From: Schmidtea polychroa
Taxonomy: Eukaryota
NCBI GenBank assembly: GCA_044892525.1
Contig: CM097885.1
Location: 29,514,001-29,578,000, forward strand
Reading direction: 5' to 3'
Length of the DNA stretch: 64,000 bases
In this document: in pieces, positions 16,031 to 58,560 of the stretch
How the letters are laid out: every line of letters begins with the position of its first letter
Position numbering within the stretch: position 1 is the first letter of the stretch
Program-made: the position numbers and the translations under genes
The notes under the pieces: generated by a model
Databases searched by the model: none
Told to the model about the DNA's origin: nothing
Seen by the model: the letters and a program-made list of their open reading frames with translations, nothing else

Positions 16031-16040
16031 CATAATAATA

Positions 16041-16061
16041 ATTATTATTATTATGTGATAT

Positions 16062-16121
<60 letters not shown>

Positions 16122-21009: not shown

Positions 21010-21450
21010 AATTTATTTATATTGTTCATGAATAATATTTGCCAATCAAATATGACAGGCTTTTATCAAGAAAATTTGCAAAATCTTTTTCAGCTTAAAA
21101 TAAATATTCTAATCTTAATTTTAGAAAATCATTTTCTAATCGAAATTGTTCATTAAAATTAATTTATTAATGCTGTTTTGTTTATATTTATATATAAAAT
21201 TTAATTTATTTGGTTTAAAAATTTTGGACTGACTTAAAATAACTGAAAATATCATTCTTGAATTAGGTTTTATTGAGATTAATGTCTGCGTAGGAAATTA
21301 TTTTCAGTTAATTATTTATTAACAAATAAATTTAATAGAGAAATGACATTTGAGAAGGTGAGATGATGTAATTTTTATTGAAATTAATAAGTTTAGATAT
21401 TTATTTTCAATATAGTAATAATGTATTTATATATATTTATTTAATATCAC

Positions 21451-21465
<15 letters not shown>
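21010..21465 (-). repeat. Right arm of the inverted repeat (partner 16041-16536)
   Basis: Reverse complement of 16041-16536, ending in the (AAT)n tract at 21451-21514. Confidence 0.9.
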
Positions 21466-21515
<50 letters not shown>

Positions 21516-21715
21516 TTTTAATTTATTTAATTGACTAATTTAATTTATATATACATTTAAGCTGAAAAACATTAGTCTGAAAACTTGAGTAGACTTTGAA
21601 GAAATTCATTTTTAATTGTATGGCGCCATTTTTGTAAGATAATATTTATTAGTATTTTACTAATTTCTCACTGTCTAATTTCAATTAATTTACGCAACTC
21701 ACTTTAATAATTTAG

Positions 21716-21754
21716 AACCAGATCCAGAAATATATTACAGTCCTTATAAAAAGG
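21716..21754 (+). CDS. Probable 39-bp phase-1 linker exon (EPDPEIYYSPYKK) of the IgSF gene
   Basis: Acceptor tttag at 21715, donor G|GTAATT at 21754/21755, then a 45-nt intron ending ttttattag. The intron is also open in frame. Confidence 0.5.
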
Positions 21755-21799
21755 GTAATTTAATTTGTAAAATCAATTCCCAATCTAATGTTTTATTAG

Positions 21800-22159
21800 T
21801 GAGAATTACGGCTCCCGGTTATGTTGAAGAAAATGAAACTTTTAATATCAGTTGTTCAATTGATATTAATTTATCTGAATCAAAACTTGTCACTGTTGAC
21901 TGGTATCAAAATGGAATTTATCTCTCTACCTCAAAGGTTTCAGGAAGAATTTTAATTAAGCAGATAATATCTCTTTCCAATCACAACGATGGGGACGCGG
22001 AAAAATTCAGATCAGAGTATAATGTAATACGAAGTGTAGCAATTTTAGTATTTGAATCTCCAAAGCCAGAGATCAACGGAATCTATGAGTGCAGAGCTTA
22101 CAAGCCAATTTCCCAGATTCAATATATCCCCATTGATTCAGCTGCTTTAAAAATAAGAG
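21800..22159 (+). CDS. Complete Ig-domain exon (phase 1-1), IgSF protein
   Basis: FNISC (B-strand Cys), VDWYQNG (C-strand Trp), NGIYEC (F-strand Cys); acceptor AG at 21799 and donor GT at 22160. Confidence 0.85.
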
Positions 22160-22179
22160 GTTAAAATTTATTATATTTA

Positions 22180-28003: not shown

Positions 28004-28300
28004 GTTTAAGTTTCATTGATGATTGAACCAAAGCTGATATTTCTTTTTGCATACGAATCGCAATACCAGGATATATAAAACGATATTGCAATATAAATCT
28101 TTATATTGCACTTTTTCATGCTGCTCTAAGTCACCTCATGAATGCCAGCATCTTTTTGGCTATAGTTGTAAAACTTAAACCTTGTTCTGTCAGTGCTTTC
28201 ATTAAATATTCTATCAAATCTCTCCCGTTCAAATCCATTGTGCGAATTGCACAAGCCAATACATAACCTTCATAAATTGACATAGAATGTATCCCACCAC
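28004..28300 (-). pseudogene. Actin pseudogene fragment with internal deletions
   Basis: Minus strand reads [45 protein letters not shown], then AGIHEVT*SSMKKC, KDLYCNIV and YPGIAIRMQKEISALVQSSMKLK. These match actin [30 protein letters not shown] and [23 protein letters not shown]. Contains a stop and frameshifts. Confidence 0.85.
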
Positions 28301-30179
28301 GTTCCAAAAATTGACTTTTTAAACAAAACCATTCAAATTCCGGCGCAAATTAATCATTAATTATAAATAAAACATTCGTTTTATTTTCATATGTAAATTT
28401 TGACTTTATTTTTATTGTTTTATCCTAAATCGATGACATTAATGAAGAAAATGTAATTATATAATAATCGAATCGAATGTATAAATATTTGAATAAATAA
28501 TATATAAAAGGAAAATGTGTTTATTTGAACATTTTTAAAAATATTGCATTAAAATATTATATAAAGATATTTTATTCAATTCCATATCATATTCAATCGA
28601 ACACTGAGAATTTCTAGTTATTTTGAAGGAAAACAATTTATGACACAGGAAGAAACTTCACGTAGATTTTGTAGAGAATTCAATAGTGGACTCAAGTATA
28701 AACGTCACTTGAACTGAAATAAAAAATATTTTATTATTTGTCTTGATTATAATCCTAAATAATTAAGAATAAATACAATACTAATTTATACTACTAACAT
28801 ATTAATTAATACTAATATTTATCATCACGAAAATAGAACTCATAGATCTTCCAGAATTAGTGAGTTAGGACTCGTCAAGAAAAGTAAAAAATAAACAACT
28901 TTGAAAATCATTCAAAAAAATAATTATTTATTAAGGAACGTTGATAATTCCTCTAAAAGGTGTAGTGTAATAGGTAATAATAAGTAACCCTAGCTTGATT
29001 GTTTTTATTTATTCCTCATATTTAATGATAATACCAATAAATGGCAGTGATAAAGTATTAGGAGAAAATATTTCGGAATAATATTTATTATTATCATACC
29101 AATAGTAGCGGAAAGGAAGTGGTGAAAATTCTTTTAACTAGTAACTATATGATTATTAAATAAAGTTTCGAAAGTCATATGGTTCAATTTAGCAAAGTTT
29201 TTTCGCGGCCTTACAGAAATTTTAATGTTTCTTTATATGTAGTGGAATAAAGTGGAAATTGTCAAATGTTTGGCATCATCCTTTATCAGTAGAAATTCCC
29301 TAACAAATTCCATATTTTTTCCATATAATTTCCTAAAATATGTATTTTCACATTATAAAAAGTATATTTATTAAATAATTAATTAATTTACATTATGCAG
29401 CGTTTTATTAACTCTTTTTAAGGTGGTGCCAATATACTGTACACCATTTTAAACTAATAAAAATATCTAAGTGTAACGCTGTCGGTAATCATTTTTACTT
29501 TTGGTACAATTACTGACATATTGAGCCACAAGAGAACAAATTTCCATGTTTTTATTTTTTTATGATCATTTGTAACTATAATTATTATTAAAAACATGTG
29601 TGTGTGTGTGTGAAATTAATTTTATTAATAATCAGTTATATATTGCTATTAATCACATATTTCAAACATACAAATATTGTTTTTAGGCATGTAAAAAATT
29701 TTAAAAGGATTTCATTTTTAATTTCTAATACATATTGATTATTCAAATAAAATTTCAATTATCAATTTTAATTGATTTCGATTCAACTCTCACATAATTC
29801 TTAAGAAATGTCAAAGACTTTGTAGATTACTTCAACCGTGGAAACATTAATAACAAAATCAAGAATAAAAAGATTTTTAAACAAAAATAAAATTATTGAT
29901 TTAGCACTTGCTGTTGAAAATTATTCCTGCGCTTTAATATTATGTTAGTTGAAAATAATCCATTTAGAATGTCATTTAATTCCATATAATATGATAGTAA
30001 TTCATATATATATTTATTTATTTATTTATTTATAAAAATTAAAACAGTAAAAGAATGTATAATAAATAATAATTGTTCAGGAAATGGATTGAATGCAACA
30101 TGTGTATTATTATAAATTTTCATATAAAACACATGTTAAAAAGAATTTATATTATTTTAAAATTTATTATTTTAATTGC

Positions 30180-32153: not shown

Positions 32154-35007
32154 TAATATCAATAGATTAGTTGATGATTGAATATTGATTGTAAGGAGTT
32201 GTAATTTAATCATTAGTGTCTCACATCATGTTTTTTTCAATATTTATCAATGTTTTATAAACAATTTGAAAATTATTTCAATTTGTTGTCTTGTTAATAT
32301 TACTCAAACCCTTTAACCAGTTATGGTCATAAAAAAGTGTATAGGAATGATAGTATATCTCTCCAATGTTTGGCATTAAGTCCATTACATAAACAGTTTA
32401 TGTGTATCGATAAAATATTTAGAGCGCAGAGAAGATTATGATTTTTCGTACGCCATGTTTACAAGTTTACAGATTTCTTGTGGCCAATTTAAAAAGCAAG
32501 TGATGTGTTTTTCAGTGTACCAGGGACAGTATGCAATAAAGGTGAATCAGCAACCTGGTGCGAAGAGAAATCTTCGCGTGTCTTGTAAAGTACTGATAAG
32601 AGCAAAATGCTCGAAACTAGTCTACTATTGGGACTTGCACTTAGTATCACAAAGCGTGTGCTGTTTATATTAATTAATAAACTATTATAAAAAATTCAAG
32701 ATTTTTTTTTAAAAGTAAATGCCTATTTACTTGAAATCTTTAAGCAAATTTAAATTGAATATATATTTTTTAATTCATTTAAATATTATTTTAAATCATA
32801 AATTTATCGGTTCTAGATCTGGGCAAAAAAGAGAATTTTATACCGGTAAACTTGCCAGCATCAAAAAACAAAAGCCCTCAAATTGACAAACATTTAACTA
32901 TTGAAAATTTAATAATTTTTGCATTTATTTTCCATCTTTATTATTATGATTATAATTGGAATTATTATTGTTTTCATTGATATCAGAAAGAGAAATGAAT
33001 TTTTTATTTTAAATTTATTTTTTCATCATTATCGTGTAAATTAATAAAAATTTAGATTTGTATTTTCGATTAAATATTTTTCCGATCTTTATTTTATGGT
33101 GTTTTATAGGTTCTTTTATGTTTAGATATAGAATTAGCACGAATGTTTTTTGAAGATTTTTATTCGTAAATTAATTAAAAACTCAAATCGGTTTAGAAGT
33201 TAAATTTCCAAATTCTAACATGAAAAGAAATTGTAGATTTAAAATCCGAAAAAAAATTTATTTACATTAATTTTTGACATAAAATAGAGAAATAATGATT
33301 TCATTGTCTAATTACATCATAAAAAGAAGTTTTACAAGAAAAAATCATGGAAAAGGATATTAATGTCCTTGCGTTATTGTGGTCACAGGCTAATGGAAAA
33401 TCAAATGTTTTTTTTCACAAAAATTTATTTTTGACATATTAGAAAGAAATAATGATTTCATTGTATAAGTACATCACAAATAAAATTTATTTTTCAAGAA
33501 ATATTATAGGAAAAGATATTAATATCTTTGTGTTGTTAATATGGTCGCAGACTAATTAAAAATCAAAACGTTTTTTCATTGAAATTTATTTAATAAATAT
33601 TATTATTAAAATTCTTTATTTCCAATTTTAATTTCTTTTACTGCTATTTTTTATTATATAATTCTAATTTTCATTTGTTTAATTGTCTATTCAAATTAAT
33701 TTATTTTAAAATTTTAGACCAATTAACATAATTTAAACAATAAACCTACTTTCTTTTAATCTGTGTTCACTGAAATTTTAGCAAAGGTTTCTATGACCAA
33801 ATTTTCCTATTCAAAAATGTGAGACCACAAAATATTTATATTTAAATATATTGCCCAAGTTTCTCTTTTCTCGCAAAGTTTGCACCAGCCTCCGACGGAC
33901 CCTGTCAACAAAGGGTTTATTATCACAATTGTATACTAAATCTCGTATGATAAAATATTTCTATTTAAAAATTAATGACCAAAAGGTTTTAGCCAAAATA
34001 CCACTTGATAAAAGCAAAGCCAAAGATTTGTGTTGAGTATAATAATGAAAAATATTTGATCTTTTGTCAAATTGAAAATAAATGAAGGTGATCAAAAAAA
34101 TAAAAGATTTCTTTAAATATAAATGTTTATATCTAGTAAAACTTTCCACATAAAATTTTTTTCATAAAACCATTTGTCAAATAGGACTTTTGGACATTGA
34201 AAATTTTGAATACGATTTGTTAATAAAACCTTGATGATAAAACATTTTATTTGTAATTTTTAATGGTATATAAATGGTATATGTCATAAATTTACACAAG
34301 GAATTTCGATCATAGATTATTTACAGGGTTTTATCAGAAAAGGTTCACTTGGTAAATAAAAACACATTGAGTATAAAAGTTTTAGTCAGTTTTTCATGAG
34401 TTAATTTATACATGATTTAAAATACGCGTATCATTATTTAAACAAAAAATGTTTTGTTAAAAATGTTTTAAACAATAAATTCGAATGGGTAATAAAACAT
34501 GTCATCAAAAAAGAAAGAAGTGGAACAATAGTGAAATATTTTAAAATAAAGTAAGTAGTATGATTGGAGCTCCCCAGACCAGGAGCTCCCCGCGCCACAT
34601 ATACCCCCTCCCCCCCCCCCCCGGGAAAAAAAAATTTTTTTTAAAATTTTTTGTTTTAATTAATTGGCCTGGCGGGCTCACACTTTTTTTCATCCCAAAA
34701 ATTAATGTTCCCGCCAACAAATTTTATTAACCGATACCTCATCTTAAAGCTCAGTCCAAGACCTTTCGAATGAGCTATAGGTATCTTATATATCTTTAAT
34801 AGTTTTAATGTTATTAACAATTGATGACCACCATCTTTTCAACGTTAAATTATTATTATTTTTCAAAATATTATTAAGTGATCCAGCGGGGACCTACTTT
34901 TTTTCATCCCAAAAATTATTGTTCCCGCCAACATATTATATTGATAGATAGCTTATTTTAAAGCTCTGTGCAAGAACTTTCTAATGAGATATAGATTTTT
35001 ATCATAC

Positions 35008-36192
35008 GATGACTCATCACATTTTTAGAACAAAGACAATGACTCATCACATTTTTAGAATGTTGTCTAATATTTTAGAATGATGCCAAATATTTTTAGA
35101 ACGATGCCTAATATTTTTAGAACGATGTCTATTATTTTTAGAATGATGTCTAATATTTTAGAACGATGCCAAATATTTTTAGAATGATGCCTAATATTTT
35201 TAGAACGATTACGTCATACTTTTAGAACGATGCCTATTATTTTTAGAATGATGCCTAATATTTTTAGAATGATTACATCATATTTTTAGAACGATGCCTA
35301 TTATTTTTAGAATGATGACTCATCACATTTTTAGAACAAAGACAATGACTCATCACATTTTTAGAACGATGCCTAATATTTTTAGAATGATTACATCATA
35401 CTTTTAGAATGGTGCCTCTTATTTTTAGAATGATTACGTCATAATTTTAGAACGATGCCTAATATTTTTAGAACGATGCCTAATATTTTTAGAATGATTA
35501 CGTCATACTTTTAGAACGATGCCTAATATTTTAGAATGATGTCTATTATTTTTAGAATGATGCCAAATATTTTTAGAACGATGTCTATTATTTTTAGAAT
35601 GATGTCTAATATTTTAGAATGATGCCTAATATTTTTAGAATGATTACGTCATAATTTTAGAACGATGCCAAATATTTTTAGAACGATGCCTAATATTTTT
35701 AGAATGATTACGTCATACTTTTAGAACGATGCCTAATATTTTAGAATGATGTCTATTATTTTTAGAACGATTACGTCATACTTTTAGAACGATGCCTAAT
35801 ATTTTTAGAATGATTACGTCATAATTTTAGAACGATGTCTATTATTTTTAGAATGATGCCTAATATTTTTAGAATGATTACGTCATACTTTTAGAACGAT
35901 GCCAAATACTTTTAGAACGATGCCTAATATTTTTAGAACGATGTCTATTATTTTTAGAATGATGCCAAATATTTTTAGAACGATGTCTATTATTTTTAGA
36001 ATGATGTCTAATATTTTAGAATGATGCCTAATATTTTTAGAATGATTACGTCATAATTTTAGAATGATGCCTATTATTTTTAGAATGATACCTAATATTT
36101 TTAGAATGATTACGTCATACTTTTAGAACGATGCCTAATATTTTTAGAATGATTACATCATACTTTTAGAACGATGCCTAATATTTTTAGAA
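35008..36192. repeat. ~21-bp minisatellite in the left arm of the Polinton-like element
   Basis: Variants of ttttagaa(c/t)gatgcctaatat / ...gattacgtcata / ...gatgactcatcaca, roughly 50-55 units. Confidence 0.95.
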
Positions 36193-36331
36193 TTAATAAT
36201 TTTGTTTTAATTATCGATGATTATATAATTTTGTTTAAATCATTGATTATATAATTCTTTTGTTTTAATTATCGAATACGTAATAATATAATTTTGTTTA
36301 AATCGTTGATTACATATTATTATTTTCTAAG

Positions 36332-36396
<65 letters not shown>

Positions 36397-36548
36397 GCAT
36401 ATATACACCGAGTTTATCCGACAAGATATTCTGTCCCCCTATGGGTACTGCTCACAAATGTACTACTCACATTCAACAAGTCACAAGGGTACTGCTCACA
36501 CTCAATATGTCGTAAATTATTATTATTATTATTTCAAATACAAGTTCA

Positions 36549-36636
<88 letters not shown>

Positions 36637-36996
36637 TATTACGCGCACCGGGAATATTATTATCATATATACTCTTAATCTATCCGACAAAATATTCTAT
36701 CCCTTTATGGGTATTGCTCATATGGGTAATGGTAGCAAGGTGTACTACTCACATTCAACATGTCTCAAAGGGTATAATATAATTATTATTAAATTCTGAC
36801 CAACTTAAATCAATGAAGGGGTAGAACAAAAATATATTAAGTTGCGGTATTTTAAATTTAAAAATATTTTAAAAACTTATTTTGACACTAAAGTTTACTT
36901 AATTAACAAAGACATAATTATTGCACATGCTTTGCATAAATATTATTATTTTTTAAATTTTCAATATTTTCTTTTAAAGTATTAACATGCGCGGGA

Positions 36997-37071
<75 letters not shown>

Positions 37072-40000
37072 GTTAACGAAAAATCTAAAATATGGTTTAC
37101 ACACACAACCCCTCAACCATTATTATTATTATCAATATTATTAACCTAAAATATTTTCTACACACACACACATGCACAACTCATTAACCATTATTATTAT
37201 CAATATTCGTGAAAACCTCAAATATTTTTTACACACACACACAACCCATTAACCATTATTATTATTATTATCAATATTAAAAACCTAAAATATTTTTACA
37301 CACACACACAACCCATTAACAATTATTATTATCAATATTAGTGAAAACCTAAAATATTTTTACATACTAAGTTATGGGGTAGAGTATTATTATGTTTGCA
37401 GTATTCTGTGTTTGCCTTTACAGGAAGTTGTCAATAAGGAGCGATAATTTTACACACACATTCTATATACACATACCTTGTTTAACATGGGTGTATATAC
37501 TCCTAGTCTATCCGACAAAATATTCTGTCCCCCTATGGGTATTGCTCACAAAGGTACTACTCACACTCAACATATCGCAAGGGTATATTAATTATGGTTA
37601 GTAAATAAAACCTATCACACACACTTTAACATTTAAACGATAAAAATCAAGACAAGAGAGGACAAGGCAAAGTGTATGCATTTAGTATTGCCAGGCCTAA
37701 TGAGCAGTGACCAAATATCTGTGCCTGAAAGACACGGTGGATATTTGTTCGCGTCCACAAGGGTCGTCTGTGCCTCCCCCAAGTGGGGTCAAAAGAACTT
37801 GGGCATTATAGTTTTCCGTATGGAACATTACGCCTAGCATGGGTAGTCAACTACCAGCACATTCGAAACGTATAATTTCAAAATACATGCGTCATTGGCA
37901 CTATAACCAAATTAATTAATGTTTTCACTAACACAAATATATATTTACAGAGGCCTCCCACTAGTTGGATTACAACCGCCCACCACGACGATCAGCTTGT
38001 AAATATATATTAATTAAGGGATAAAGAGGACCCACCCAACCCTATTATATTTAATTTACAAATTTTTCTCGCTCTTCTGTTGGTAATCTATCTCAAAATT
38101 ATCATCTCCATCAGGCCATTTGATAGTGATTTCATGGAATACATCTTGCAAATTGGACGTATTTCTTAGTCTCTGATGCGGCGTCAACTATCATTGCTAA
38201 AATTTATATTGATTTAAAAGCAATTAACTTACATTATCTAGCATTTTTTCGTCACAGGCTTGATAAATTAGGCAACTGTTATTTGTGGTATACTTTTTCA
38301 ATGTCATTTCCCACCATAAAACACAGATACCTAAATATAATATATATATATTTTAAAGAATTAATTCATATCTTACATTAATAATAATATTCTTCAGGTA
38401 GTACTTTACTTAATTGATAAAACATCGGTTTTTCCCATTTTTCTTGACAATCGTTGAAAGAAAGTTTACATAATTTAAGTAAACATTCATGTTGAAGGAC
38501 ACCCACAATCAGCTAATTCATTTAAGAAATCCGGAACATAGCAATGTTTCACCATTTTGTCTGGTTCATTTTCTTCTATAATTCATGTTTTATTAAGAAA
38601 TTTCTAAATCCAGAACATAAGTCATTTAGTGTTTCACCATTTTGTTCATCTTCTTCATAATCATATAATTCATTTTCTTCATTACTAAGTAAAATAATTA
38701 AAATATTGTAGTAAATTCTTTATTTACTTACTTTATGGATACTAAAACGAAAGAAATAAAGTTATATCAAAAGTATATTTAAATAAATTAAATTTCAATA
38801 ATTTAATTTAGTTATTTAAAAATATTTAAACAATTTAGTTATTTAAGCATATTTAAACATTAACATTATTATATAGTATAATTTTATATAATATTATAAT
38901 TTTATGTACACTTATATATCCTTCATTTAATTTTTTAAATTCAAAATTTATAATGAAGATTCTTTGAATTAAAAAATATTCTGTTAGTATTTCCAAACAG
39001 TAAACAACGAATTCAATAATTAAAATCTTAATTTTCATGTTGTTAGGGTTGTGGCCAGAATTTAATCGCCATCTAATCGTTTGTTCTCAATTTCGCTCAT
39101 TTTTGTTCAAAACATTCAGGTGAGTTGTTATCTGGAAAGTTTCTTTGAGCTCAGTTTTGTTAAAACACTCACGGTATTTTTGAGGGACGTGACACTGGGA
39201 ATAAATTAACAATGGGTGGTCATCCATACATGTTGTTGGTTTGAACTGTTGATTTATTTTAGAAATATGTATATTAAAAACATTTAAGGTATCATTCAGT
39301 AAAATAATATAGTATTTTTGAGTATTTTTAGTTGATTTATAAATAACAGTATTTTGATATATCAATAAAGACCATATACTTCTAGTCTATCCGACAAAAT
39401 ATTCTGTCCCCCTATGGGTATTGCTAGCAAGGGTACTGGTCACATTCAACATGTCACAAGGCTATATTAATCATTTAGAAATTCTTAGGTAATTTAGTGA
39501 GATGATCAGAAATTCGTGAATATTTTAAATGTAACTTTACACTTATGTCGAGCGACTAATTTATTGGTTAACTTTGTAGTCATTTAAAGCAAAAATTAAT
39601 TTATTCATCTAATGTTCGTTACAATAGTTAATAATATGAGAAAAACATGGTCATTATTCATTGATAATTTTAAATTCTTTATCATTTGGAGTAAATTTGT
39701 TTGAGGCAAAAATAATTAAAGGAGTCATAATAGAAATATGGTTATCATTTATCCAATTAAGGGGCCTATTATTTAGAAATATAAAGTAACAATTATTTTC
39801 TAATTTAATTAGATGATCATTAGACGTAATATATCTTTGCGAGAAATTTAAGATGTTTGAGTAACCAAAACATGGACATTTTGTGCGATAAATTTATGAA
39901 TATTGCTTAATTTTGTTATTTTTAGTCATTTAAAATAATATTTAGCAAAGGTAATTTAGCAAAATATCATTTATCCACCCGATAACAATATTCCTTCAAT

Positions 40001-43000
40001 AGATTAACTGATATTCAACGTATTTAATTTCTGGAAATATAATTAAAATCATAAATTTCCTTCATGAAAGTTAAATTTTCTTTAGTTGTCGATGTCTAAC
40101 TCTTTTAAGTCAATATTTTTGTTACCGTTATCTTCATAATGAATGTCCGTCTTTAAAATGTTAAATAAAATAATTTAAAGCAATAACCTTTGATATCAAT
40201 TATCTCTAAATATTTCAAATATTGCATTGTCAAAACCAAGTAAATTAGTCATTACCCATTAATAAAACCGTGGATAATTAATAAAAACTGGTTCTGAAAC
40301 ATAAATTACTGTGCAATAACATTCATCACAACCTCTAAAACGATATAATTTCACAGGAACTATTCATAGCTGACTATTTCCCTTGAAAATTTGATATTTT
40401 ACCAATAAGAATATATAAATATTCAAAACATTAACCGATCCCTCACCAAATATCTTTACCCCTTAAAACACCTTAAATCGTATATATTACCATCTTAACC
40501 TTCACTAAATCCAACCGAATATAATTTCATCCACTTGTGCCCTTTAATAAATCTTAAAATCTATAGAAAATTCTTCAAAATATGAATTTTATTTAATTGT
40601 CACAGACATTCCTCCATTGAAATAATTTAGTAGCTAAATTCAAAGAGTCCACTAAAAGATCAAAATTCATTAAAATAAATATTTAACCACATGTGTCATC
40701 AAATACCTAACTAGAGATGATAATATCTCATTGATTGATCATAATTATAACCATTATAACATGATATATCTTTCAAACTAAATTTAGGTATATTTTACAA
40801 TAATTTTCAAGTAGATTTTAAATATATCATCATCGTGAAAAAATTAGATTGTTTCAACTTTAGATTTTCAATATTTTAAAGTTCATCAATGTGTAAATAT
40901 TCTTAGAAAAATATATGAAAAAATTATTTAGTCAAATTATCATTACAAAGTCATCATCATCATCAAAATTAATAAAATATAGCAAATTATCAATAAATTA
41001 ATTAAATTTATCTTAGAATTAACACTAAACCTTAAATATTCTTTCAATTAACATGAAATTCACAAAAAAAATGTTAGTAAAATCCCGCTAACTCTAAACA
41101 ATTACCAATGAATTTAATGCCAAATAATAACCAAATATTTGCCTAAATAAAATCATTAAAACACACCAGTACCTTTACGACCAGTACCCTTACGACCAGT
41201 ACCCTTACGACCAATACCCTTACAAGCAGTACCCATAGAGGGAGAAAATATTTTGTCGGATAAACTCCGAGTATATATATAATAAAACGAATTAACAATA
41301 ACTCCATCAAATTGAATCAGTCAAATTATCACAAATTTTAATAAAAAATCTTATTCTAAAGTGGTAAGCAGCGTAAAATCGAAAGATAATTTTAATAACA
41401 CAGAGATAAAATTAACAATATTATTCTCAGGTGGTAAGAATATTTTATTTTTGAGTCTGTTATCCCTCTATTATCATTGCTTACTTGATGTTTTCATAAA
41501 TTTAAGTAAAGTTAATGCTGGGTATGTGTTCTGACACACTTTGTTATTTTCTTAACTTTGAGAGATTATTTTGATTAAAAAGAGTAATGTATCTTGAATT
41601 ATCTTTTAGAATAACTGTTTTTGAAATATTTAATGTAAAATAGTAAATCTCATAATTATTAATTCAATATTAAAGGAGTTAATCAAAATTTAAAATATAA
41701 AGTTATCATAATTGCTTAGTCAAATACCATTTGTTATGTATGTTTGTCATTTTTGGATTAAATACTTTATCAAAATAATTGTTTATCACATTATTATTAT
41801 TCGTTAGTCACTCATATATTAGAAATAATTTATAAATACTCATCACTTATAGCCCCCCCCCCATTTTCCACTAATCCTCCCAACAACTATTTCTTTGAAC
41901 ATTGAATTAAATATTTTTTTTTTATTAAAGTGATCATTTTTATAAATTTTTATGAATTTCATGAAATAATTTTAAATAAATGCAATTAATATATTTCCAT
42001 CTTATCTATGACACTTCTCGGTATATTTACGTTTACGTTCCATTAATGAATAATTCAAACCCTTATTTTCACCTTTTTGAATTTCATTATTAATTAATCA
42101 TAGAATAATGATGATTCTTACCACCTGAGAATAATATTGTTAATTTTATCTCTGTGTTATTAAAATTATCTTTCGATTTTACGCTGCTTACCACTTTAGA
42201 ATAAGATTTTTTATTAAAATTTGTGATAATTTGACTGATTCAATTTGATGGAGTTATTGTTAATTCGTTTTATTATATATATACTCGGAGTTTATCCGAC
42301 AAAATATTTTCTCCCTCTATGGGTACTGCTCGTAAGGGTACTGGTTGTAAGGGTACTGGTCGTAAAGGTACTGGTGTGTTTTAATGATTTTATTTAGGCA
42401 AATATTTGGTTATTATTTGGCATTAAATTCATTGGTAATTTTTTAGAGTTAGCGGGATTTTACTAACATTTTTTTTTGTGAATTTCATGTTAATTGAAAG
42501 AATATTTAAGGTTTAGTGTTAATTCTAAGATAAATTTAATTAATTTATTGATAATTTGCTATATTTTATTAATTTTGATGATGATGATGACTTTGTAATG
42601 ATAATTTGACTAAATAATTTTTTCATATATTTTTCTAAGAATATTTACACATTGATGAACTTTAAAATATTGAAAATCTAAAGTTGAAACAATCTAATTT
42701 TTTCACGATGATGATATATTTAAAATCTACTTGAAAATTATTGTAAAATATACCTAAATTTAGTTTGAAAGATATATCATGTTATAATGGTTATAATTAT
42801 GATCAATCAATGAGATATTATCATCTCTAGTTAGGTATTTGATGACACATGTGGTTAAATATTTATTTTAATGAATTTTGATCTTTTAGTGGACTCTTTG
42901 AATTTAGCTACTAAATTATTTCAATGGAGGAATGTCTGTGACAATTAAATAAAATTCATATTTTGAAGAATTTTCTATAGATTTTAAGATTTATTAAAGG

Positions 43001-46000
43001 GCACAAGTGGATGAAATTATATTCGGTTGGATTTAGTGAAGGTTAAGATGGTAATATATACGATTTAAGGTGTTTTAAGGGGTAAAGATATTTGGTGAGG
43101 GATCGGTTAATGTTTTGAATATTTATATATTCTTATTGGTAAAATATCAAATTTTCAAGGGAAATAGTCAGCTATGAATAGTTCCTGTGAAATTATATCG
43201 TTTTAGAGGTTGTGATGAATGTTATTGCACAGTAATTTATGTTTCAGAACCAGTTTTTATTAATTATCCACGGTTTTATTAATGGGTAATGACTAATTTA
43301 CTTGGTTTTGACAATGCAATATTTGAAATATTTAGAGATAATTGATATCAAAGGTTATTGCTTTAAATTATTTTATTTAACATTTTAAAGACGGACATTC
43401 ATTATGAAGATAACGGTAACAAAAATATTGACTTAAAAGAGTTAGACATCGACAACTAAAGAAAATTTAACTTTCATGAAGGAAATTTATGATTTTAGTT
43501 ATATTTCCAGAAATTAAATAGGTTGAATATCAGTTAATCTATTGAAGGAATATTGTTATCGGGTGGATAAATGATATTTTGCTAAATTACCTTTGCTAAA
43601 TATTATTTTAAATGACTAAAAATAACAAAATTAAGCAATATTCATAAATTTATCGCACAAAATGTCCATGTTTTGGTTACTCAAACATCTTAAATTTCTC
43701 GCAAAGATATATTACGTCTAATGATCATCTAATTAAATTAGAAAATAATTGTTACTTTATATTTCTAAATAATAGGCCCCTTAATTGGATAAATGATAAC
43801 CATATTTCTATTATGACTCCTTTAATTATTTTTGCCTCAAACAAATTTACTCCAAATGATAAAGAATTTAAAATTATCAATGAATAATGACCATGTTTTT
43901 CTCATATTATTAACTATTGTAACGAACATTAGATGAATAAATTAATTTTTGCTTTAAATGACTACAAAGTTAACCAATAAATTAGTCGCTCGACATAAGT
44001 GTAAAGTTACATTTAAAATATTCACGAATTTCTGATCATCTCACTAAATTACCTAAGAATTTCTAAATGATTAATATAGCCTTGTGACATGTTGAATGTG
44101 ACCAGTACCCTTGCTAGCAATACCCATAGGGGGACAGAATATTTTGTCGGATAGACTAGAAGTATATGGTCTTTATTGATATATCAAAATACTGTTATTT
44201 ATAAATCAACTAAAAATACTCAAAAATACTATATTATTTTACTGAATGATACCTTAAATGTTTTTAATATACATATTTCTAAAATAAATCAACAGTTCAA
44301 ACCAACAACATGTATGCAAGACCACCCATTGTTAATTTATTCCCAGTGTCACGTCCCTCAAAAATACCGTGAGTGTTTTAACAAAACTGAGCTCAAAGAA
44401 ACTTTCCAGATAACAACTCACCTGAATGTTTTGAACAAAAATGAGCGAAATTGAGAACAAACGATTAGATGGCGATTAAATTCTGGCCACAACCCTAACA
44501 ACATGAAAATTAAGATTTTAATTATTGAATTCGTTGTTTTCTGCCTGGAAATACTAACAGAATATTTTTTTATTCAAAGAATCTTCATTATAAATTTTGA
44601 ATTTAAAAAATTAAATGAAGGATATATTAAATTTACAATACATAAAATTATAATATTATATAAAATTATACTATATAATAATGTTAATGTTTAAATATGC
44701 TTAAATAACTAAATTGTTTAAATATGTTTAAATAACTAAATTTAAATTATTTAAATATAATTCTGATATAACGTTATTTCTTTCGTTTTAGTATCCATAA
44801 AGTAAGTAAATAAAGAATTTACTAAAATATTTTAATTATTTTACTTAGTAATGAAGAAAATGAATTATATGATTATGAAGAAGATGAACAAAATGGTGAA
44901 ACACTAAATGACTTATGTTCTGGATTTAGAAATTTCTTATTAAAACATGAATTATAGAAGAAAATGAACCAGACAAAATGGTGAAACATTGCTATGTTCG
45001 GGATTTCTTAAATGAATTAGCTGATTGGGGGTGTCCTTCAACATGAATTATCAGACTTAAATTATGTAAACTTTCAACGAATGTCAAGAAAAATGGGAAA
45101 AAACCGATGTTTTATCAATTAGATATTGTAAAGTACTACCTGAAGAATATTATTATTAATGTAAGACATGAATTAATTCTTTAAAATATATATATTATAT
45201 TTAGGTATCGGTGTTTTATGGTGGGAAATGACATTGAAAAAGTATACCACAAATAACAGTTGCCTAATTTATCAAGCCTGTGACGATAAAATGCTAGATA
45301 ATGTAAGTTAATTGCTTTTAAATCAATATAAATTTTAGCAATGATAGTTGACGCCGCATCAGAAACTAAGAAATACGTCCAATTCGCAAGATGTATTCCA
45401 AATGGCCCGATGGAGATGATAATTTTGAGATAGATTACCAGCAGAAGAGCGAGAAAAATTTGTAAATTAAATATAATAGGGTTGGGTGGGTCCTCTTTAT
45501 CCCTTAATTAATATATATTTACAAGCTGATCGTCGTGGTGGGCGGTTGTAATCCAACTAGTGGGAGGCCTCTGTAAATATATATTTGTGTTAGTGAAAAC
45601 ATTAATTAATTTGGTTATAGTGCCAATGACGCATGTATTTTGAAATTATACGTTTCGAATGTACTGGTAGTTGACTACCCATGCTAGGCGTAATGTTCCG
45701 TACGGAAAACTATAATGCCCAGGTTCTTTTGACCCCACTTGGGGGAGGCACAGACGACCCTTGTGGACGCGAACAAATATCCACCGTGTCTTTCAGGCAC
45801 AGATATTTGGTCACTGCTCATTAGGCCTGGCAATAATAAATGCATAAACTTTGCCTTGTCCTCTCTTGTCTTGATTTTTATAGTTTAAATATAAAAGTGT
45901 GTGTGATAGGTTTTATTTACTAACCATAATTAATATACCCTTGCGATATGTTGAGTGTGAGTAGTACCTTTGTGAGCAATACCCATAGGGGGACAGAATA

Positions 46001-46199
46001 TTTTGTCGGATAGACTAGGAGTATATACACCCATGTTAAACAAGGTATGTGTATATAGGATGTGTGTGTAAAATTATCGCTCCTTATTGACAACTTCCTG
46101 TAAAGGCAAACACAGAATACTGCAAACATAATAATACTCTACCCCATAACTTAGTATGTAAAAATTATTTAAGGTTTTTTCACTAATAATAATAATAAT

Positions 46200-46259
<60 letters not shown>

Positions 46260-47029
46260 GTTTAATGGGTTGTATATGTGTGTAAAAAATATTTGAGGTT
46301 TTCACTAATATTGATAATAATAATGGTTTATGAGTGTTTTTATGTTTTTGACTAATATTTGCAATAATAATAATGGTTAATGGGTTGTGTGTGTGTGTGT
46401 AAAAAATATTTGAGGTTTTCACGAATATTGATAATAATAATGGTTTATGAGTGTTTTTATGTTTTTGACTAATATTTGCAATAATAATAATGGTTAATGG
46501 GTTGTGTGTGTGTGTGTAAAAAATATTTGAGGTTTTCACGAATATTGATAATAATAATGGTTTATGAGTGTTTTTATGTTTTTGACTAATATTTGCAATA
46601 ATAATAATGGTTAATGGGTTGTGTGTGTGTGTAAAAAAAAAATAAAATTTTAAGTTTTTGACTAGTATTTGCAATAATAATAATATTGATAATAATAATT
46701 GTTAATTGGTTGAGTGTGTGTTTTTATGTTTTTGACTAATATTTGCAATAATAATAATAATAATAATAATAAAGTTTAATGGGTTGTATATGTGTGTAGA
46801 AGATATTTTAGGTTTTCACTAATATTGATACAAATAATTGTTAATGGGTCGTGTGTGTGTGTGTGTAAACCATATTTTAGGTTTTCACTAATAATGATAA
46901 TAATAATGGTTAATGAGTTGTGCATGTGTGTAGAAAATATTTTAGGTTTTTAATATTGATAATAATAATAATGGTTGAGGGGTTGTGTGTGTGTGTGTAA
47001 AAAAATATTTTAGGTTTTCACTAATAATG

Positions 47030-47060
<31 letters not shown>
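46200..47060. repeat. Compound (AAT)n/(GT)n-containing tandem repeat, including ~120-bp units, expanded in the right arm
   Basis: Repeated aatggttaatgggttgtgtgtg...aaaatatttgaggttttcac; a shorter reverse-complement counterpart lies at ~37000-37365. Confidence 0.85.
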
Positions 47061-47061
<1 letters not shown>

Positions 47062-47582
47062 TCCCGCGCGTGTTAATACTTTAAAAGAAAATATTGAAAA
47101 TTTAAAAAATAATAATATTTATGCAAAGCATGTGCAATAATTATGTCTTTGTTAATTAAGTAAACTTTAGTATCAAAATACGTTTTTAAAATATATTTAA
47201 ATTTTAAAATACCGCAACGTAATATATTTTGTTCTACCCCTTCATTGATTTAAGTTGGTCGGAATTTAATAATAATTATATTATACCCTTTGAGACATGT
47301 TGAATGTGAGAAGTACCCTTGTAACCATTACCTATGTAAGCAGTACACATAGGGGGGCAGAATATCTTGTCGGATAAACTCTGACTATATATGATAATAA
47401 TAATAATAACTCCCGTGCGTGTTAAAATAAATAATAATACTTTGAACTTGTATTTGAAAATAATTTACGACATGTTGAATGTGAGTAGTACCCTTGTGAC
47501 AATTACCCATGTGAGTAGTGCCCTTGTGAGCAATACCCTTAGGGAGACAGAATATCTTGTCGGATAGATTAAGAGTATATAT

Positions 47583-47634
<52 letters not shown>

Positions 47635-47674
47635 CTTAGAAACTAAAAACTTAGAAAATAATAATTATTTTAAT

Positions 47675-48600
47675 AAATGACCTTGAAAAGTAAATGACCT
47701 TGAAAAGTAAATGACCTTGAAAATTAAATGACCTTGAAAAATTAAATGACCTTGAAAATTAAATGACCTTGAAAATTAAATGACCTTGAAAATAAAAAGA
47801 TTACTTAATTAAAACAAAAAAATTAAATTAAAAAAAATGACCTTGACCTTGATGAGTCATATGACCTTGGGAATGACCTTGATGAGTCATCGTTCTAAAA
47901 ATATTAGACATCGTTGGGTGAGTCATTGGGTGAGTCATTCTCTTTGTTAATATTAATGATGATGATACCTTCTATGACTCATTCGAAAGGTCTTGGACTG
48001 AGCTTTAAGATGAGGTATCGTCCAATAAATTCGGATAATGGGAACATTAATTTTTGGGATGAAAAAGAGTAGGGGCCCGCCAGACCACTTAATAATTATA
48101 TGACCTTGAAAATGATTTTTGGTAAAATGTTAATAACTTTGTCAATAATAATGATGATGATACCTTCATTAGCTCATTCGAAAGGTCTTGCATTGGGCTT
48201 TAAAATGAGGTATCGTCCAATCCGTTGGTGGGAACATTAATTTTTGGGATGAGAAAAAGTATGTCACCGCCCGGCCAATTAATAATATTTTGAATAATAA
48301 TAATAATTTAACGTTGAAAAGATGGTGGTCATCAATTGTTAATAACTTTGTCAATAATAATGATGATGATACCTTCTATGAATCAATCGAAAGGTCTTGC
48401 ATTGGGCTTTAAAATGAGCTATCGTTGAATAATTATCGTTGTCGGGAACTCTGTACATTTAAATTTTAAAATATGACCTTGAAAAAATAAATGACCTTGA
48501 AAAAATAAATGACCTTGAAAAATAAATGACCTTGAAAAAATAAATGACCTTGACCTTGACCTTGAAAATAATATTTTGAAAAATAAATGACCTTGAAAAA
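47675..48600. repeat. Clusters of ~15-bp aaatgaccttgaaa repeats interleaved with ~200-bp subterminal units
   Basis: Clusters at ~47675-47790, 47836-47885 and 48472-48600; units beginning atgatgatgataccttc at ~47957, 48151, 48360, 48638 and 48852. Confidence 0.9.
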
Positions 48601-50254
48601 TGGTCTCGGTAAAACTTTAATAACTTTGCCGATGTTAATGATGATGATACCTTCTATGGCTCAATTGAAAGGTCTTAGACTACGCTTCAAAATAAGCTAT
48701 CGATTAATAAATTCGGATAATGGGAACATTAATTTTTGGGATGAGAAAAAGTATGTCCCCGCCCGGCCAATTAATAATATTTTGAATAATAATAATAATT
48801 TAACGTTGAAAAGATGGTGGTCATCAATTGTTAATAACTTTGTCAATATTAATGATGATGATACCTTCTATGGATCAATCGAAAGGTCTTGGACTGAGCT
48901 TTAAGATGAGGTATCGGTCAATAAAATCTGTTAACGAGAACATTAATTTTTGGGATGAAAAAAAGTGTGAGCCCGCCAGGCCAATTAATTAAAACAAAAA
49001 ATTTAAAAAAAAATTTTTTTTTTCCCGGGGGGGGGGGGGGGAGGGGGTATATGTGGCGCGGGGAGCTCCTGGTCTGGGGAGCTCCAATCATACTACTAAA
49101 GTACGTAATTTAAGGTTGTTAAAAACAAGAAAGCATGAGTGATTTAATAATAAAATATTTAAAATTAATCAAATTTGAATATGCGAAAACAGTGACGTTT
49201 ATTCAACACTTAAAAAGTCTAATAATATATTAAATGTGATTTTCTAGTTTTATATAAATTACAGTGATAAGTATTGTTTTAACATATATCTAGCTTAACT
49301 TTATGAAAATGTAGAAAATTATTTTGTTTAAATGTAATGATTTCCTTCCTTGATATTAATCATTTCTTACCTTTGATTAATTATTTATTTAAGTGTTAAA
49401 TATGCAAAAATTATAATTCTTTTATAATAATACAGTTTTCTAAAGGATTTTGATTTTAAAATTCCGTCTTTTATTTCAAATTATGATGCTACTAGTAATG
49501 CTCAACAAACAGGGCCGCCCCGAACAAAAGATGGACTAGTGCAAATATTCTTAGTGGGTCATTGAAAGAAATTATATTCAAAATCGCATGATTCTGTAGA
49601 TTTTTATTTCAATAACGTGATTAAAGGACTCAGATATAAAGAATGGCGGTAAGTAAGTAAAGTAATCAAATGTTAGAGTGTTTTCAGATATAAAGAGAGC
49701 ATCAATACTACTAGAGTAATTTTCAAAACAATCAAATTTTCGCCATAAAATTTTGTCAACAAAGACAAATGAATAAATAAAAAATTCAACAAATAAATCC
49801 ACTCAATAATATGAACCTCTACAATTCATATATAAATTTTATCGCCAGGGGCCCCATTTATTTTTAACAAAAATATTCTAAAACTAAATTTAAATTAAGC
49901 TAGAAATTTGTGAGAATCGATTTTCGCAGAAAGTTCAGTCAATATTTATACGCCACCTGCTGCTATACGAATCAATGAGGCATCGATCCATTATCAGAGA
50001 TTTTTAGAAAAATACTTTTAGAGATTCCCTTCACCATAATAAAAATCTTTATTTTAAAAAAAATTTTCAAATTGAATAAATTGGGACATTTATCTATTTT
50101 TTGACACAAGAAAAATTTATGGGTTTTTAATAAATGATAAATGTTTAACAATCTGATATAATTTGTAAAAATGTATTAATACCGTTGAGGTCTTTCAGAT
50201 TCATTTTATCTCCATTATTTTTAATATTATAATGTTATTTATATTAATATTAGT

Positions 50255-50934: not shown

Positions 50935-52330
50935 AATAAATGATAATTTAAGCCTTTTGCTGCGAAGTATATATTTAAAAAAATGAAAAAATTGTCAACT
51001 ATAAGATAGACCTTGTCAATTTCCTGGAATTTAGTTGCTTCAATTTTCAAATGTTTTTTCGTTTTTTCTTTTATTTTATTTTTTTTTGTTCACATTATTT
51101 CAAAGTAAATAGAATTAAATTAAAACTTTTTTTCAAGAATTTAAAATTAAATATCCTCTAAAATTCAAAATAAAACAATAAAAAATTTCTGAATTTTTAA
51201 AGCTTTTTTAACTAGATCTTGATATTTTTAATAAATAATATTATAAAATATTTATTCATAAAAGACACAGTTTAAATATTTTTAAACAGTTATATTTCGA
51301 TTTTTTTACTTAATGATTCTTAAAAGTTTACTTCCTTAAAATTTGATCAAGTTATTTATATTATTTTTAAAGAAAATATTCTCAAGGTCAATAACAACTG
51401 ATTAGGCTGGTGATTCTATTGATCTCTTCCATTGTGTTGATTTTTAGCTGTCTGTTTATGATGAGAATTACCTCTTTAAATCTGACATCTTTCTTTTGGA
51501 TGTTGTCATTAGATTTCAATTAAAATATTTTTATTTCCTTCCTTGGTTGACATGGTTTGGAGATATTTGTATACCGATGATTTTCCACCAGGATCTAGAT
51601 GTTCTTTAACTCCTTGGTGCAAGTTCTTCAGCGTACTTCCAATGTATATTTCATTGCATATATTACACGAAATGTAGTAGCCAATATGGTTTTGGAGGCA
51701 AAGATCGTCGGTGTCTGGCAGCTTTCCAAACGGGATTGAATTTATTTTTTCAATGTCCTTATTGTGTTATCCGTTTCTCTGTATAAATTTTTTGAAGTTT
51801 AATGGTAGTTTATTTAATAGCTGTCAATTTTATTATCTTCAGCACATCAATTGGATATTCATTGTTTCTCGATTTTTATGAAATTTATTCTCTATGAGTA
51901 TGGAAGTGCTGATCTTTGGTGTATAAATATTTTCTTGCAAGCTGGGTTTTTGTAGAATCCGTAAGTTGAAGTATCTACTTCTATTTTAATTTTTAAATCC
52001 AGTAGATTGAGGGATTCATCTTCTTCTGGATATTCGATTTCAAAATTAAAATCTCGACGAGCAGTATTAAATATATGAAATATTTCTTCCGCTTCTAACC
52101 CCTTTTGATCGTAATGAAGAAATCATCTACATATTTTGCGTAGAAACCGATTGATTTTATGGTCCTTAGTGTTTGTCGTTCGCGAATAAAGAAAAGCGGT
52201 TTGATGATATTATCGGTATTCATTTCCTTTATTAACAAGTTGCTTTCTCCTAATTTCTTGTTTAAACATTTAATAGTCTTTTGGGTCAATAGATGTGTTT
52301 AGTGATACGACATCAGGACTGAAATGGGTA
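50935..52330 (-). mobile_element. Degenerate Penelope-like retroelement (RT, GIY-YIG remnant, 3' pLTR with family B hammerhead)
   Basis: FSPDVVSLNTSI, YAKYVDDFFI, LNLLDLKI and EVILII...INT motifs; hammerhead-like TTGACAA-gg.cta-tctta-tagt at ~50985-51023 downstream. Confidence 0.7.
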
Positions 52331-56279: not shown

Positions 56280-58560
56280 TATATACAAATTAATAATATA
56301 TAACAAAATACAAATTTTAAACAATTATTTTTTAAAAATAATTTTCAATAATCATTATTTTATTTTACTTATTTTTAATTATTTTAACATAACTATTATT
56401 AATTATTATAATATGTGTAATAATATATTATTATAATATATTATAATATATTATTATAATATTATAATATATTATAATATATTATTATAATATTATAATA
56501 AATGTATGCTGAGTGCAAGTAAGATTGAGTATGTTGATAAAAATAAAAAACAGAATATTAAGAATTTTTTGGTACTGAATAAATTGTAAATTTGATAAAG
56601 GAAATGGATTTGTGATTTGGACCATAATGTTTAAGTGAATAAATTAAAAGAAGTACTCTCAGGTTCTCAATTTTCAAAAATCGATAAATTTCGAATAAAT
56701 GGAGATTGCCACTTCTAAAGGATGAAGTGATTTTGAATACTATGTTGTGTGATTTGGTTAAGATAAGATAAGATAAGATAAGATAACAGCTAAATTATAC
56801 GGACTTCCAAAAGTGCATAAAGACATGAGTTCCCATGAGACCTGCTTTATCTATGGTCGAAACAGCTCAATATAAAATAGCGAAGTATTTGGGTGGATTA
56901 TTAAAACCCTTAATAAAATCTGAGTTTGAATGTAAGGATAGTTTCGAATTTGCATCATGTATAGGACAATTGAATAAAAATAATGTTAATGAGTGTATGG
57001 TTTTGTTTTATGTATGTAGTTTATTTACTAATGTCCCGATGAAAGAAACAATCGATTTATGTTGTGAATTATGGAATCAAAATATTAATGCGCATAAAAT
57101 ATGTGATGGAAATGTATTTAAGAAGCTTTTTTTAGTTTGCAACTTCCAAAGTTAATTTTGTTTTTAATAATGGTATGAACAAATTGATGGAGTGGCTATG
57201 GGTTTGCCCTTAGCGTCAACAATGGCGTCAATATTTTTGGCATGTTTAGATAAGAAAATTGCTTCTTTTCAATATGAAAAACCAATTGTGTATAAAAGAT
57301 ATGTTGATGATATTTTTCTAATATTTAAAAATAAGGAACATGTGAAACCTTGTTTGCATTACACGAATGGATTGCATAAGAACATTGTATTCACATGTGA
57401 AACTGAGAAGGATTCATCCATAGCATTTCATGACTTGTTAATTAAACGTAAAGATGAACAATATGAAAAAGAAATTTACAAAAAACCAACAGATACCTTT
57501 ATACTACCCAGAGAGTTTTTGTGAATTTAAATATAAAAGAAACATGGTGAAAGGATTGGTTTATCTATGATGGTGCTTATCTTCCACTTTTAAAAATTCA
57601 GTAAAAAGTGTAGATAAATTAGTTGAATTACTGGTGAATTACTCTGTACTCAAAACGGTTTTTTTTGTTAACGTTGAAAGAGACTGTTGATAAATGTATG
57701 AATAATGCTAAGGATCGTAGTATGGATGAATGTAAATTGACTGATATGTCGAATGATGTAGTGAATATGACTATTGATACTAACAAACAAGATTAGCCAA
57801 AATATACGATGGTATTGCCGTATTCTGAAGATATAAAGATTTCAAAAGAAAGATTGGTAAACAGCTGGGTACATAAAATTATAGAATTGTTTCAAAATCG
57901 TGCTTAGTACATAGTATATTTGTTAGTAAATCTCAAACGCCGGTTGGATTGTGTTCGGATCTCGTTTATCAATTCACATGTAATGGGTGTAATACCACAT
58001 GCATTGGAGAGACTTCCCGTCATCTCTGTACTCGAGTTCAAGAAAACTGTCGACCGAAGAGAGTATCCAATATTAAGAATCACAATAAAGTCTGTATGAG
58101 AGAATTAAGAATGTCTGATTTTAAAATCTTATCAAAAAATTTGAAAATTGTTTTGAGCGTCTGATATGTGAAGCATTATTGATAAGAACTTTTAATTCTA
58201 AAATCAATGTGCAGAATGCAGTGAATACGTGTGTGTTAAATGTTTTTAATAATATTTTTGTATGTTGATGTATATTGAATAATAGTTATGTTAAATAATT
58301 CAAAAAATAATTAAAATAATATTTTTTAAATAATTTTAAAAGTTTAAATATTATTGATTATTGGAAATTATTTTTTAAAAAAATAATTGTTTAAAATTTA
58401 TAGATTTTATAAATTGTTTATATATTATTAATATAGAATTGTTATTCATCCGTCATGAATGTAGTTAACCTGATGATGATAGTGATCCTATCGAAATATA
58501 TAGTGAAAAGGATGTACGAATGGCGATTTTAATTAATAAAATATTTAATGTGTTTATTTA
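56280..58560 (+). mobile_element. Degenerate Penelope-like retroelement: inverted pLTR piece, RT, GIY-YIG endonuclease, 3' pLTR
   Basis: DKGNGFVI (~56594), P.RP..S, SLFTNVP, G.AMGLPLA, YKRYVDDIF and LVYQFTCNGCNTTCIGETSR. 56288-56420 is a reverse-complement copy of 58265-58435. Confidence 0.9.
58465..58507 (+). ncRNA. Minimal type-I hammerhead ribozyme motif in the Penelope pLTR
   Basis: ttaac-CTGATGA-t-GATAG-tgatc-CTATC-GAAA-tata-TA-gtgaa; canonical core, stem I has one mismatch. Confidence 0.7.

Follow-up and report, generated by a model that had tools for sequence, protein, structure and literature searches.

A Gene-less Palindromic Element with Polinton Ends in Schmidtea polychroa Belongs to an Old Satellite Family Probably Served by a Resident Polinton

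Structure of the Element

The 64,000-nucleotide window analyzed here (G000:C1:29514001-29578000, on contig CM097885.1 of the Schmidtea polychroa assembly GCA_044892525.1, an AT-rich animal assembly of 781 Mb) contains a gene-less palindromic element at positions 34554-49097 whose ends are shared with an intact Polinton resident in the same genome, called the helper below. The element begins with AGTAGTATG and ends with CATACTACT; read directly, its termini are AGTAGT at 34554 and ACTACT at 49097, and AAAGTA adjoins each side as a target site duplication (TSD), a 6-bp match with a probability of ∼0.001 by chance at the local base composition. Both ends carry tandem-repeat AGTAGTA tips, and the terminal inverted repeat (TIR) is perfect over 69 bp. 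Inverted arms of 6,888 bp (left) and 6,984 bp (right) enclose a loop of 672 bp (Table 1). The AGTAGT termini, exact TSD, ∼6.9-kb arms and 672-bp spacer listed in a first-pass annotation, made from the letters of the window, are all borne out, and because the TSD flanks the element both ends were inserted as one unit, as had been proposed there. Its description of a ∼95% palindrome holds as the share of the length that lies in paired arms and fails as a measure of identity, which is 77% globally (5,756 matches, 666 mismatches and 1,028 gap columns).

Table 1. Features of the palindromic element, in window positions
Feature	Position	Strand	Remarks
Palindromic element	34554-49097		G000:C1:29548554-29563097
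TSD, left copy	34548-34553	+	AAAGTA
Left terminus	34554-34622	+	AGT tandem start and GC-rich modules; inverted repeat with right end perfect over 69 bp; probable origin and substrate of integrase
Left subterminal 214-bp units	34659-34994	+	One whole and one partial; helper-type TIR sequence
21-bp tandem array	35051-36193	+	TIR variant found also in helpers L047 and L119; right arm without the array
TAT microsatellites, two 93-bp boxes, CA/TAT composite minisatellite	36315-37364	+	Boxes from ∼36400 and ∼36666
Satellite core, left copy	37370-41441	+	Non-coding; helper homology limited to 93-bp box
93-bp boxes in left core	37494-37586, 39374-39465, 41198-41301		Last one reversed
44-nt copy of 5' (Alu) head of signal recognition particle (SRP)/7SL RNA	37953-37996	-	Rfam RF00017
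Loop	41442-42113	.	Unpaired, 672 bp, class 1
Satellite core, right copy	42114-46160	-	98.5-100% like arms of L099/L100
SRP RNA head, mirror copy	45525-45568	+	
Right-arm minisatellites	46184-47660	-	117-bp and 65-bp units, TAA runs, two 93-bp boxes
Right subterminal 17/18-bp arrays and 214-bp units	47674-48989	-	About five 214-bp units; TIR of helper type, resembling L043, L111 and L117
Right terminus	49029-49097	-	
TSD, right copy	49098-49103	+	AAAGTA

When 168 open frames from Polinton-region loci were used as protein queries, they matched only spurious frames in the end repeats of the element. The same search gave no integrase, capsid, ATPase or protease encoded in the element, and tblastn with the polymerases of the helper and of a second family gave no polymerase match. 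The longest frame of the core, at 99 aa, compares with 78 (median) and 112 (95th percentile) in shuffled sequence. With protein matches that are spurious only and core frames at chance level, the earlier statement that no frame resembles a Polinton gene stands. Pfam returned only two weak hits for five longer frames of the element, both under the cut-off. A coding core was considered and rejected: substitutions between lineages fall evenly on the three codon positions (57/62/53 for L083), and the indel length is divisible by three in 8 of 31 cases.

What the 4.7 kb of core and loop have in common with the helper is limited to the 93-bp box and simple repeats, whereas the TIR region is present in both; the core is non-coding and, by these comparisons, not helper-derived. 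The box marks the inner edge of the TIR, with 10 copies in the element, two in nine of 10 helpers and three in the remaining helper. A role for it as a breakpoint hot spot was rejected, only three of ∼18 internal breakpoints in 11 rearranged copies lying at or in a box. An Rfam search of the element at gathering score returned no match; the SRP RNA head matches RF00017 at E 5.8e-5, below that score, recurs unchanged in 68 of 86 hits from loci that overlap and is no more conserved than its immediate flanks. The GC-rich stretch at 37650-37870 folds no better than shuffles (z -0.95 and -0.54). Core-like sequence of 67-74% identity occurs in palindromes that lack these family ends (L078, L177/L178 and L067-L069), which suggests that the core is older than its current pairing with the helper or has switched helpers.

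Copies in the Genome and the Helper Polinton

The terminal 25-mer has 350 exact copies in the genome and the left arm-loop junction of the window copy has 220 (control 0 for each), alongside 1,184 copies of a loop-edge motif and 377 of a helper ATPase motif; the best 40 genome matches to the loop are 99-100% identical. Among the first 100 listed termini there were 31 inward-facing pairs and 38 unpaired termini, and the 32 elements fetched comprise 30 pairs besides the window together with one pair each on C3 and C4. A perfect 6-bp TSD flanks 31 of these 32 terminus-paired elements, so that the copies with different TSDs anticipated by the first-pass annotation do exist. Ten are helpers (16.2-17.7 kb), and 15 are gene-less palindromes with the satellite core, each with a different TSD. 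The rest are two one-armed elements (8.5 and 9.5 kb), two joins of a helper capsid half to a core arm, one polymerase-polymerase palindrome, one short palindrome of 7.4 kb and one short piece with inverted flanks.

A second sample consisted of 20 loci chosen by loop sequence. Both termini are present in 13, seven lacking one or both; of the 13, 10 have a direct TSD (in two of them once the terminus is moved by 3 bases), two have inverted flanks and one is mismatched. The loops fall into classes that are ∼76% alike, with at least three left junctions. Lineages 13-14% apart and at least three loop junctions indicate that the family is old. We conclude that the element is a member of an old non-autonomous Polinton satellite family with hundreds of copies, rather than a one-off snap-back. 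No empty-site allele was seen in the contigs compared, which cover the left junction. At G000:C1:40888905-40984947, same-strand loop-edge motifs are spaced 3,529 bp and then ∼8.5 kb apart, forming tandem arrays of satellite pieces. One helper (L047/L048, G000:C1:13994549-14011562) lies between two loop-edge motifs that face apart, an apparent insertion in a satellite loop.

The 10 helpers among the 32 elements with the shared terminal 25-mer match all six helper genes tested, and their TIRs are 92-97% like those of the satellite. Helper L043/L044 has genes for an A32 ATPase, a chromodomain-bearing rve integrase and a TBP-like protein; the last of these (159 aa, L043:3014-3490, minus strand; PF00352, E 2.5e-15) and the ATPase are arranged head to head. 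In L098, the left half of which is ∼99% helper-like, we read a protease of adenoviral type. The helper polymerase of 1,382 aa had no PF03175 match in hmmscan at full length and is identified via its relatives, being 60% identical to a PF03175-positive polymerase, and a piece of the same family matches PF03175 at 2e-25. A 407-aa helper protein had no capsid identification by sequence in Pfam, NCBIfam or PDB sequences. Its predicted fold (predicted local distance difference test score of 92.6) matches the major capsid proteins of iridovirus, PBCV-1 and mavirus with a best E of 8e-17, and we assign it from this model as a double-jelly-roll capsid protein. The first-pass annotation had invoked an autonomous partner, and one with the same ends is thus present, with polymerase, integrase, ATPase, protease and capsid genes. 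Because the ends are shared and given the TSD length, we infer that the satellite is mobilized in trans by the helper proteins.

Arm Matching and Related Palindromes

To compare arms we used 19 copies and the window copy, dropping arms with <85% cover. Inner arms diverge by 0.06% within elements (n = 12) and by 7.25% between them (n = 484 pairs); the corresponding values are 0.63% (n = 15) and 3.08% for the region 37600-38700 and 0.30% (n = 15) and 3.16% for 38900-39600. L083, L101 and L109 are 13-15% from the window copy, and the inner arms within each of them are 0.00% different. The terminal 45 nt, of which there are 19 variants, are the same at both ends in 27 of 30 palindromes as opposed to 7.8% of 1,740 comparisons between elements. 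Sixteen of these 30 were chosen by the exact terminal 25-mer, and the ends match in 11 of the 14 that were not chosen by their termini; the set leaves out one-armed loci, loci lacking a terminus and the arm-deleted pair L132/L134. That lineages 13-14% apart each have identical arms argues, from sequence comparison, that the arms have been repeatedly rewritten from each other.

The window copy ranks among the most asymmetric palindromes sampled. Its inner 2.2 kb (39230-41441) differ between arms by four substitutions and two indels, a match of ∼99.8% near the loop, and the middle of the arms diverges by ∼2%; at ∼35000-36300 the left 21-bp array faces the right 17/18-bp arrays and 214-bp units, and the best single BLAST block between the arms covers 4,411 bp at 95.6%. 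The right arm is 97-100% like the arms of L099/L100 in 16 of 17 bins. The left end is nearest to helper L119 (the first 400 bp of the left arm are 97% like the right TIR of L119/L120), and one middle bin is nearest to another lineage. By these affinities the window copy is a recombinant with arms from different relatives, subsequently inserted as one unit, which accounts for its low global arm identity.

Five inverted polymerase pairs that were compared are all palindromes, with arms 99-99.9% alike. Six second-family polymerase-polymerase palindromes have at their center a pair of satellite-family termini whose flanks mirror each other, the arrangement to be expected from fold-back or recombination guided by a nested inverted repeat. 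The polymerase pairs, the second-family cases and the inverted ATPase pairs described below support palindrome formation through copying guided by inverted repeats as a general habit of Polintons in this genome, and to that extent the earlier proposal. The six second-family palindromes lie at C1:92.37 Mb, C1:171.21 Mb, C1:235.38 Mb, C3:10.39 Mb, C3:32.53 Mb and C4:8.61 Mb (L121-L128 and L061-L066); their centers measure 0.5-1.7 kb and have the same mirror-image flank, and the central terminal variants differ between copies.

Four inverted ATPase pairs are helpers in which one end is overwritten by 3.7-7 kb of the other; two of them, of 17.2 and 10.2 kb, have a clear TSD, and in these TSD-flanked helpers 3.7-4.4 kb is copied from the opposite end. 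The chimeras L091/L092 and L097/L098 are also TSD-flanked and join the left half of a helper to a satellite core arm: the TBP, ATPase, integrase and capsid genes are kept, and the satellite arm replaces the polymerase. L051 is a TSD-flanked polymerase-polymerase palindrome of the helper, and L187/L188 is a capsid-capsid helper palindrome. A BED zinc-finger frame lies at the center of the former (L051:5021-5545, minus strand). The left arm of L155 contains 3.7 kb of the right flank as an inverted copy, within an outer TSD, and therefore copying templated by the right arm passed the terminus. At this locus (L183/L155/L156, G000:C1:34784042-34800748) the satellite lies in a third Polinton type, and the inverted flank is joined at a TAT run and a short inserted repeat. 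At L141/L142/L182 (G000:C1:186360-212908) a palindrome adjoins first an inverted duplicate of its own left flank and then a second element, the whole composite being bracketed by a direct CATTTT repeat.

The median length of the palindromes is 13,964 bp, that of the helpers 16,905 bp, and 25 of the 30 palindromes are at 77-105% of helper length.

Discussion

This gene-less palindromic family shares its ends with a resident intact Polinton, has its own 6-bp TSDs at many sites and contains matched arms, mosaics and half swaps, and we think it probable that it is copied by the helper polymerase and inserted by the helper integrase. In the mechanism that we propose, the protein-primed polymerase of the helper would copy the satellite by strand displacement from the terminal origin, and the displaced single strand would fold back as a hairpin whose stem measures 7 kb and whose loop measures 0.7 kb. 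One arm could then template the other, so that arms and terminal modules are matched again; an occasional switch of copying to a sibling or helper molecule would give mosaic arms, as in the window copy, and chimeras of helper half and satellite half, and the helper integrase would insert the finished product. Arm rewriting is likely to take place during this helper-driven strand-displacement replication. Such hairpin copying would extend the racket model of Polinton replication (PMC4196379) and has a parallel in adenovirus, in which internal inverted repeats drive replication-induced recombination (PMC2518115), and genomes below ∼75% of unit length rearrange, with 15-kb vectors packaged as direct and inverted dimers (PMC4189039; the 75% floor is given also in PMC12111873).

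Several points weigh against this proposal. The replication route is read from integrated copies. Mean arm substitutions amount to 0.2% within 2 kb of the loop and to 1.8-3.0% at 4-7 kb; if repair went simply through a terminal panhandle, the arms should match best at the ends, and with a rise outward intermolecular switching must be added. The medians are ≤0.3% out to 7 kb, the rise in the means being due to a minority of mosaic copies and to misaligned arrays. From the overshoot in L155, an arm can be copied with the element still attached to its target, a result also expected from chromosomal gene conversion. A strict size floor is countered by the five of 30 palindromes that are <75% of helper length and by TSD-flanked elements of 7.4, 8.3, 8.5, 9.5, 10.2 and 10.6 kb (range 7.4-11.5 kb), and the clustering of lengths could have been inherited from a founder.

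The packaging constraint raised in the first-pass annotation is compatible with the lengths of those 25 palindromes, but the shorter TSD-flanked forms leave it unproven. We suggest tentatively that the two-armed form may have won by reaching a length that the helper capsid would package. A bolder and more doubtful extension is that an animal Polinton has in this family a natural "gutless" satellite virus, an inverted dimer filled with stuffer and fitted in size to the helper capsid, with 10 cis boxes and a captured 7SL head, that would be packaged in Polinton particles and whose arms would record a hairpin replication intermediate. If true, this would be genomic evidence for animal Polintons passing through virions.

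The matching would be silent on replication if gene conversion in the chromosome, or cruciform repair, maintained the likeness of the arms of a non-autonomous Polinton family once its copies had been inserted, in the manner of arm-to-arm conversion in sex-chromosome palindromes. Arm identity peaks beside the loop, and the L155 arm rewritten past the terminus into the flank, which needs an element joined to its target, and the similar inverted flank in L141 also favor this process, but both overshoots lie in or beside other Polinton sequence and may stem from a replicating composite. Diverged arms persist in L115 (95%) and L072/L131 (97%), three substitutions in the paired region of the duplicated insertion L132/L134 are not mirrored (a comparison of very low power), and terminal modules adjoining unique flanks match within copies across the 19 variants; we regard maintenance by chromosomal conversion as improbable. 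An origin as a single snap-back or defective-interfering derivative, taken from the helper genome and kept at unit length, was favored in the first-pass annotation and has precedents in the true helper-derived palindromes (polymerase-polymerase in L051, capsid-capsid in L187/L188) and in the snapback genomes made by adeno-associated virus (AAV; PMC8235507). However, the core and loop are not helper sequence, and the family has 220 exact loop junctions, 1,184 loop-edge motifs, lineages 13-14% apart and at least three junctions. For the core such an origin is already refuted unless an unseen autonomous Polinton contains it, and we consider a one-off derivative very unlikely.

Scarcely different in standing, and if anything a shade weaker, is a Foldback-like element or MITE (miniature inverted-repeat transposable element) moved by cut-and-paste through the Polinton integrase alone, without protein-primed replication. 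Long modular TIRs of tandem repeats and the lack of genes would suit it, and the TSDs prove integrase action only, but cut-and-paste alone rewrites no 7-kb arms and makes neither half-genome chimeras nor polymerase-polymerase palindromes, and the AGT terminal repeat is a mark of protein priming (PMC4196379). That the palindrome is a fold-back artifact of assembly or amplification is hardly credible. The read-level evidence consists of short-read contigs, none spanning the whole element; those of two public runs, possibly from the source study, agree throughout with the left flank and with the first 27 bases of the terminus, which falls short of a 31-base bridging rule. Against an artifact stand the unique flanks and TSD of the element, arms that are unlike and derive from different relatives, the separate TSDs found for 31 of the 32 related elements, and the 672-bp loop common to copies.

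The element works like a helper-dependent, snap-back-shaped satellite and belongs to the non-autonomous Polintons, being neither an autonomous Polinton nor a helper-derived defective genome. Foldback elements and MITEs are likewise gene-less with long modular inverted arms; Foldback elements have a ∼9-bp TSD and a DDE transposase partner. The element differs from both in its Polinton ends, 6-bp TSD, 14-kb length and exchange of halves with a polymerase-bearing helper. With autonomous Polintons/Mavericks it has in common the 6-bp TSD, TIRs with short tandem repeats at their tips (PMC10748475, PMC4196379) and a length within 13-25 kb (PMC10748475, PMC6431247), whereas it lacks genes and has arms of ∼7 kb, compared with published TIRs of 100-1,500 bp (PMC10748475, PMC6431247). 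Non-autonomous Polintons have TSDs of 5-8 bp, usually 6 bp, and TIRs that open with a 1-3-bp tandem repeat. The 6-bp TSD of the element, its TIRs that start with tandem repeats, its ends of a resident autonomous Polinton and its dispersed gene-less insertions are those of a non-autonomous Polinton, of which one is named in Repbase (Polinton-1N1_DR; PMC9341505). Butterfly polintons with ∼2-kb gene-bearing TIRs have been described as active after loss of polB (10.1101/2025.02.07.637071). Like such non-autonomous or polB-less elements, the family appears helper-dependent, TIR-bounded and active; it is unlike them in being a near-unit-length palindrome with an old non-coding core of its own and hundreds of copies, although some of the Repbase entries may share this form.

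Among viral systems, helper-dependent "gutless" adenovirus genomes also keep only their ends and form inverted dimers (PMC4189039), but they are engineered and episomal, whereas the element is natural, integrated and inherited, and its packaging is hypothetical. Snapback defective-interfering genomes of AAV are self-complementary with a loop and depend on parental proteins (PMC8235507). The element is likewise self-complementary, with a loop and replication ends, but AAV snapbacks are pieces of the parent made anew each time, whereas its core is not derived from the helper and its lineage is long-lived. No description of gene-less palindromes spanning a whole Polinton was found in the literature searched, which included 10.1101/2024.01.15.575659, PMC3014272, PMC5499653, PMC3185507 and PMC8235507 and contained few subscription papers and no Repbase entries.

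The route of Polinton replication (racket or panhandle) and the formation of particles in animals are old questions with little direct evidence. The 7-kb arms act as an internal recorder, from which matching within copies, mosaics, half swaps and run-off past the terminus are legible, and the distribution of lengths relative to the capsid-encoding helper provides a testable packaging prediction. Hundreds of 14-kb gene-less palindromes also make up a sizeable share of the genome that annotation based on polymerase and integrase would miss.

Neighboring Sequence

Upstream of the element, immunoglobulin-domain exons at 1742-1963 and 21679-22161 of the window (plus strand) probably belong to a host gene, and a decayed actin fragment lies at 28134-28349 (minus strand; PF00022, E 1e-4). 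Broken reverse transcriptase and GIY-YIG pieces of Penelope-like type are found at 51512-52298 (minus strand) and 56829-58161 (plus strand). A 525-bp inverted pair, 93% identical and 4.5 kb apart (16015-16536 and 21010-21524), and two small palindromes of ∼185 bp (2524-2704 and 4919-5108) probably represent other DNA transposons.

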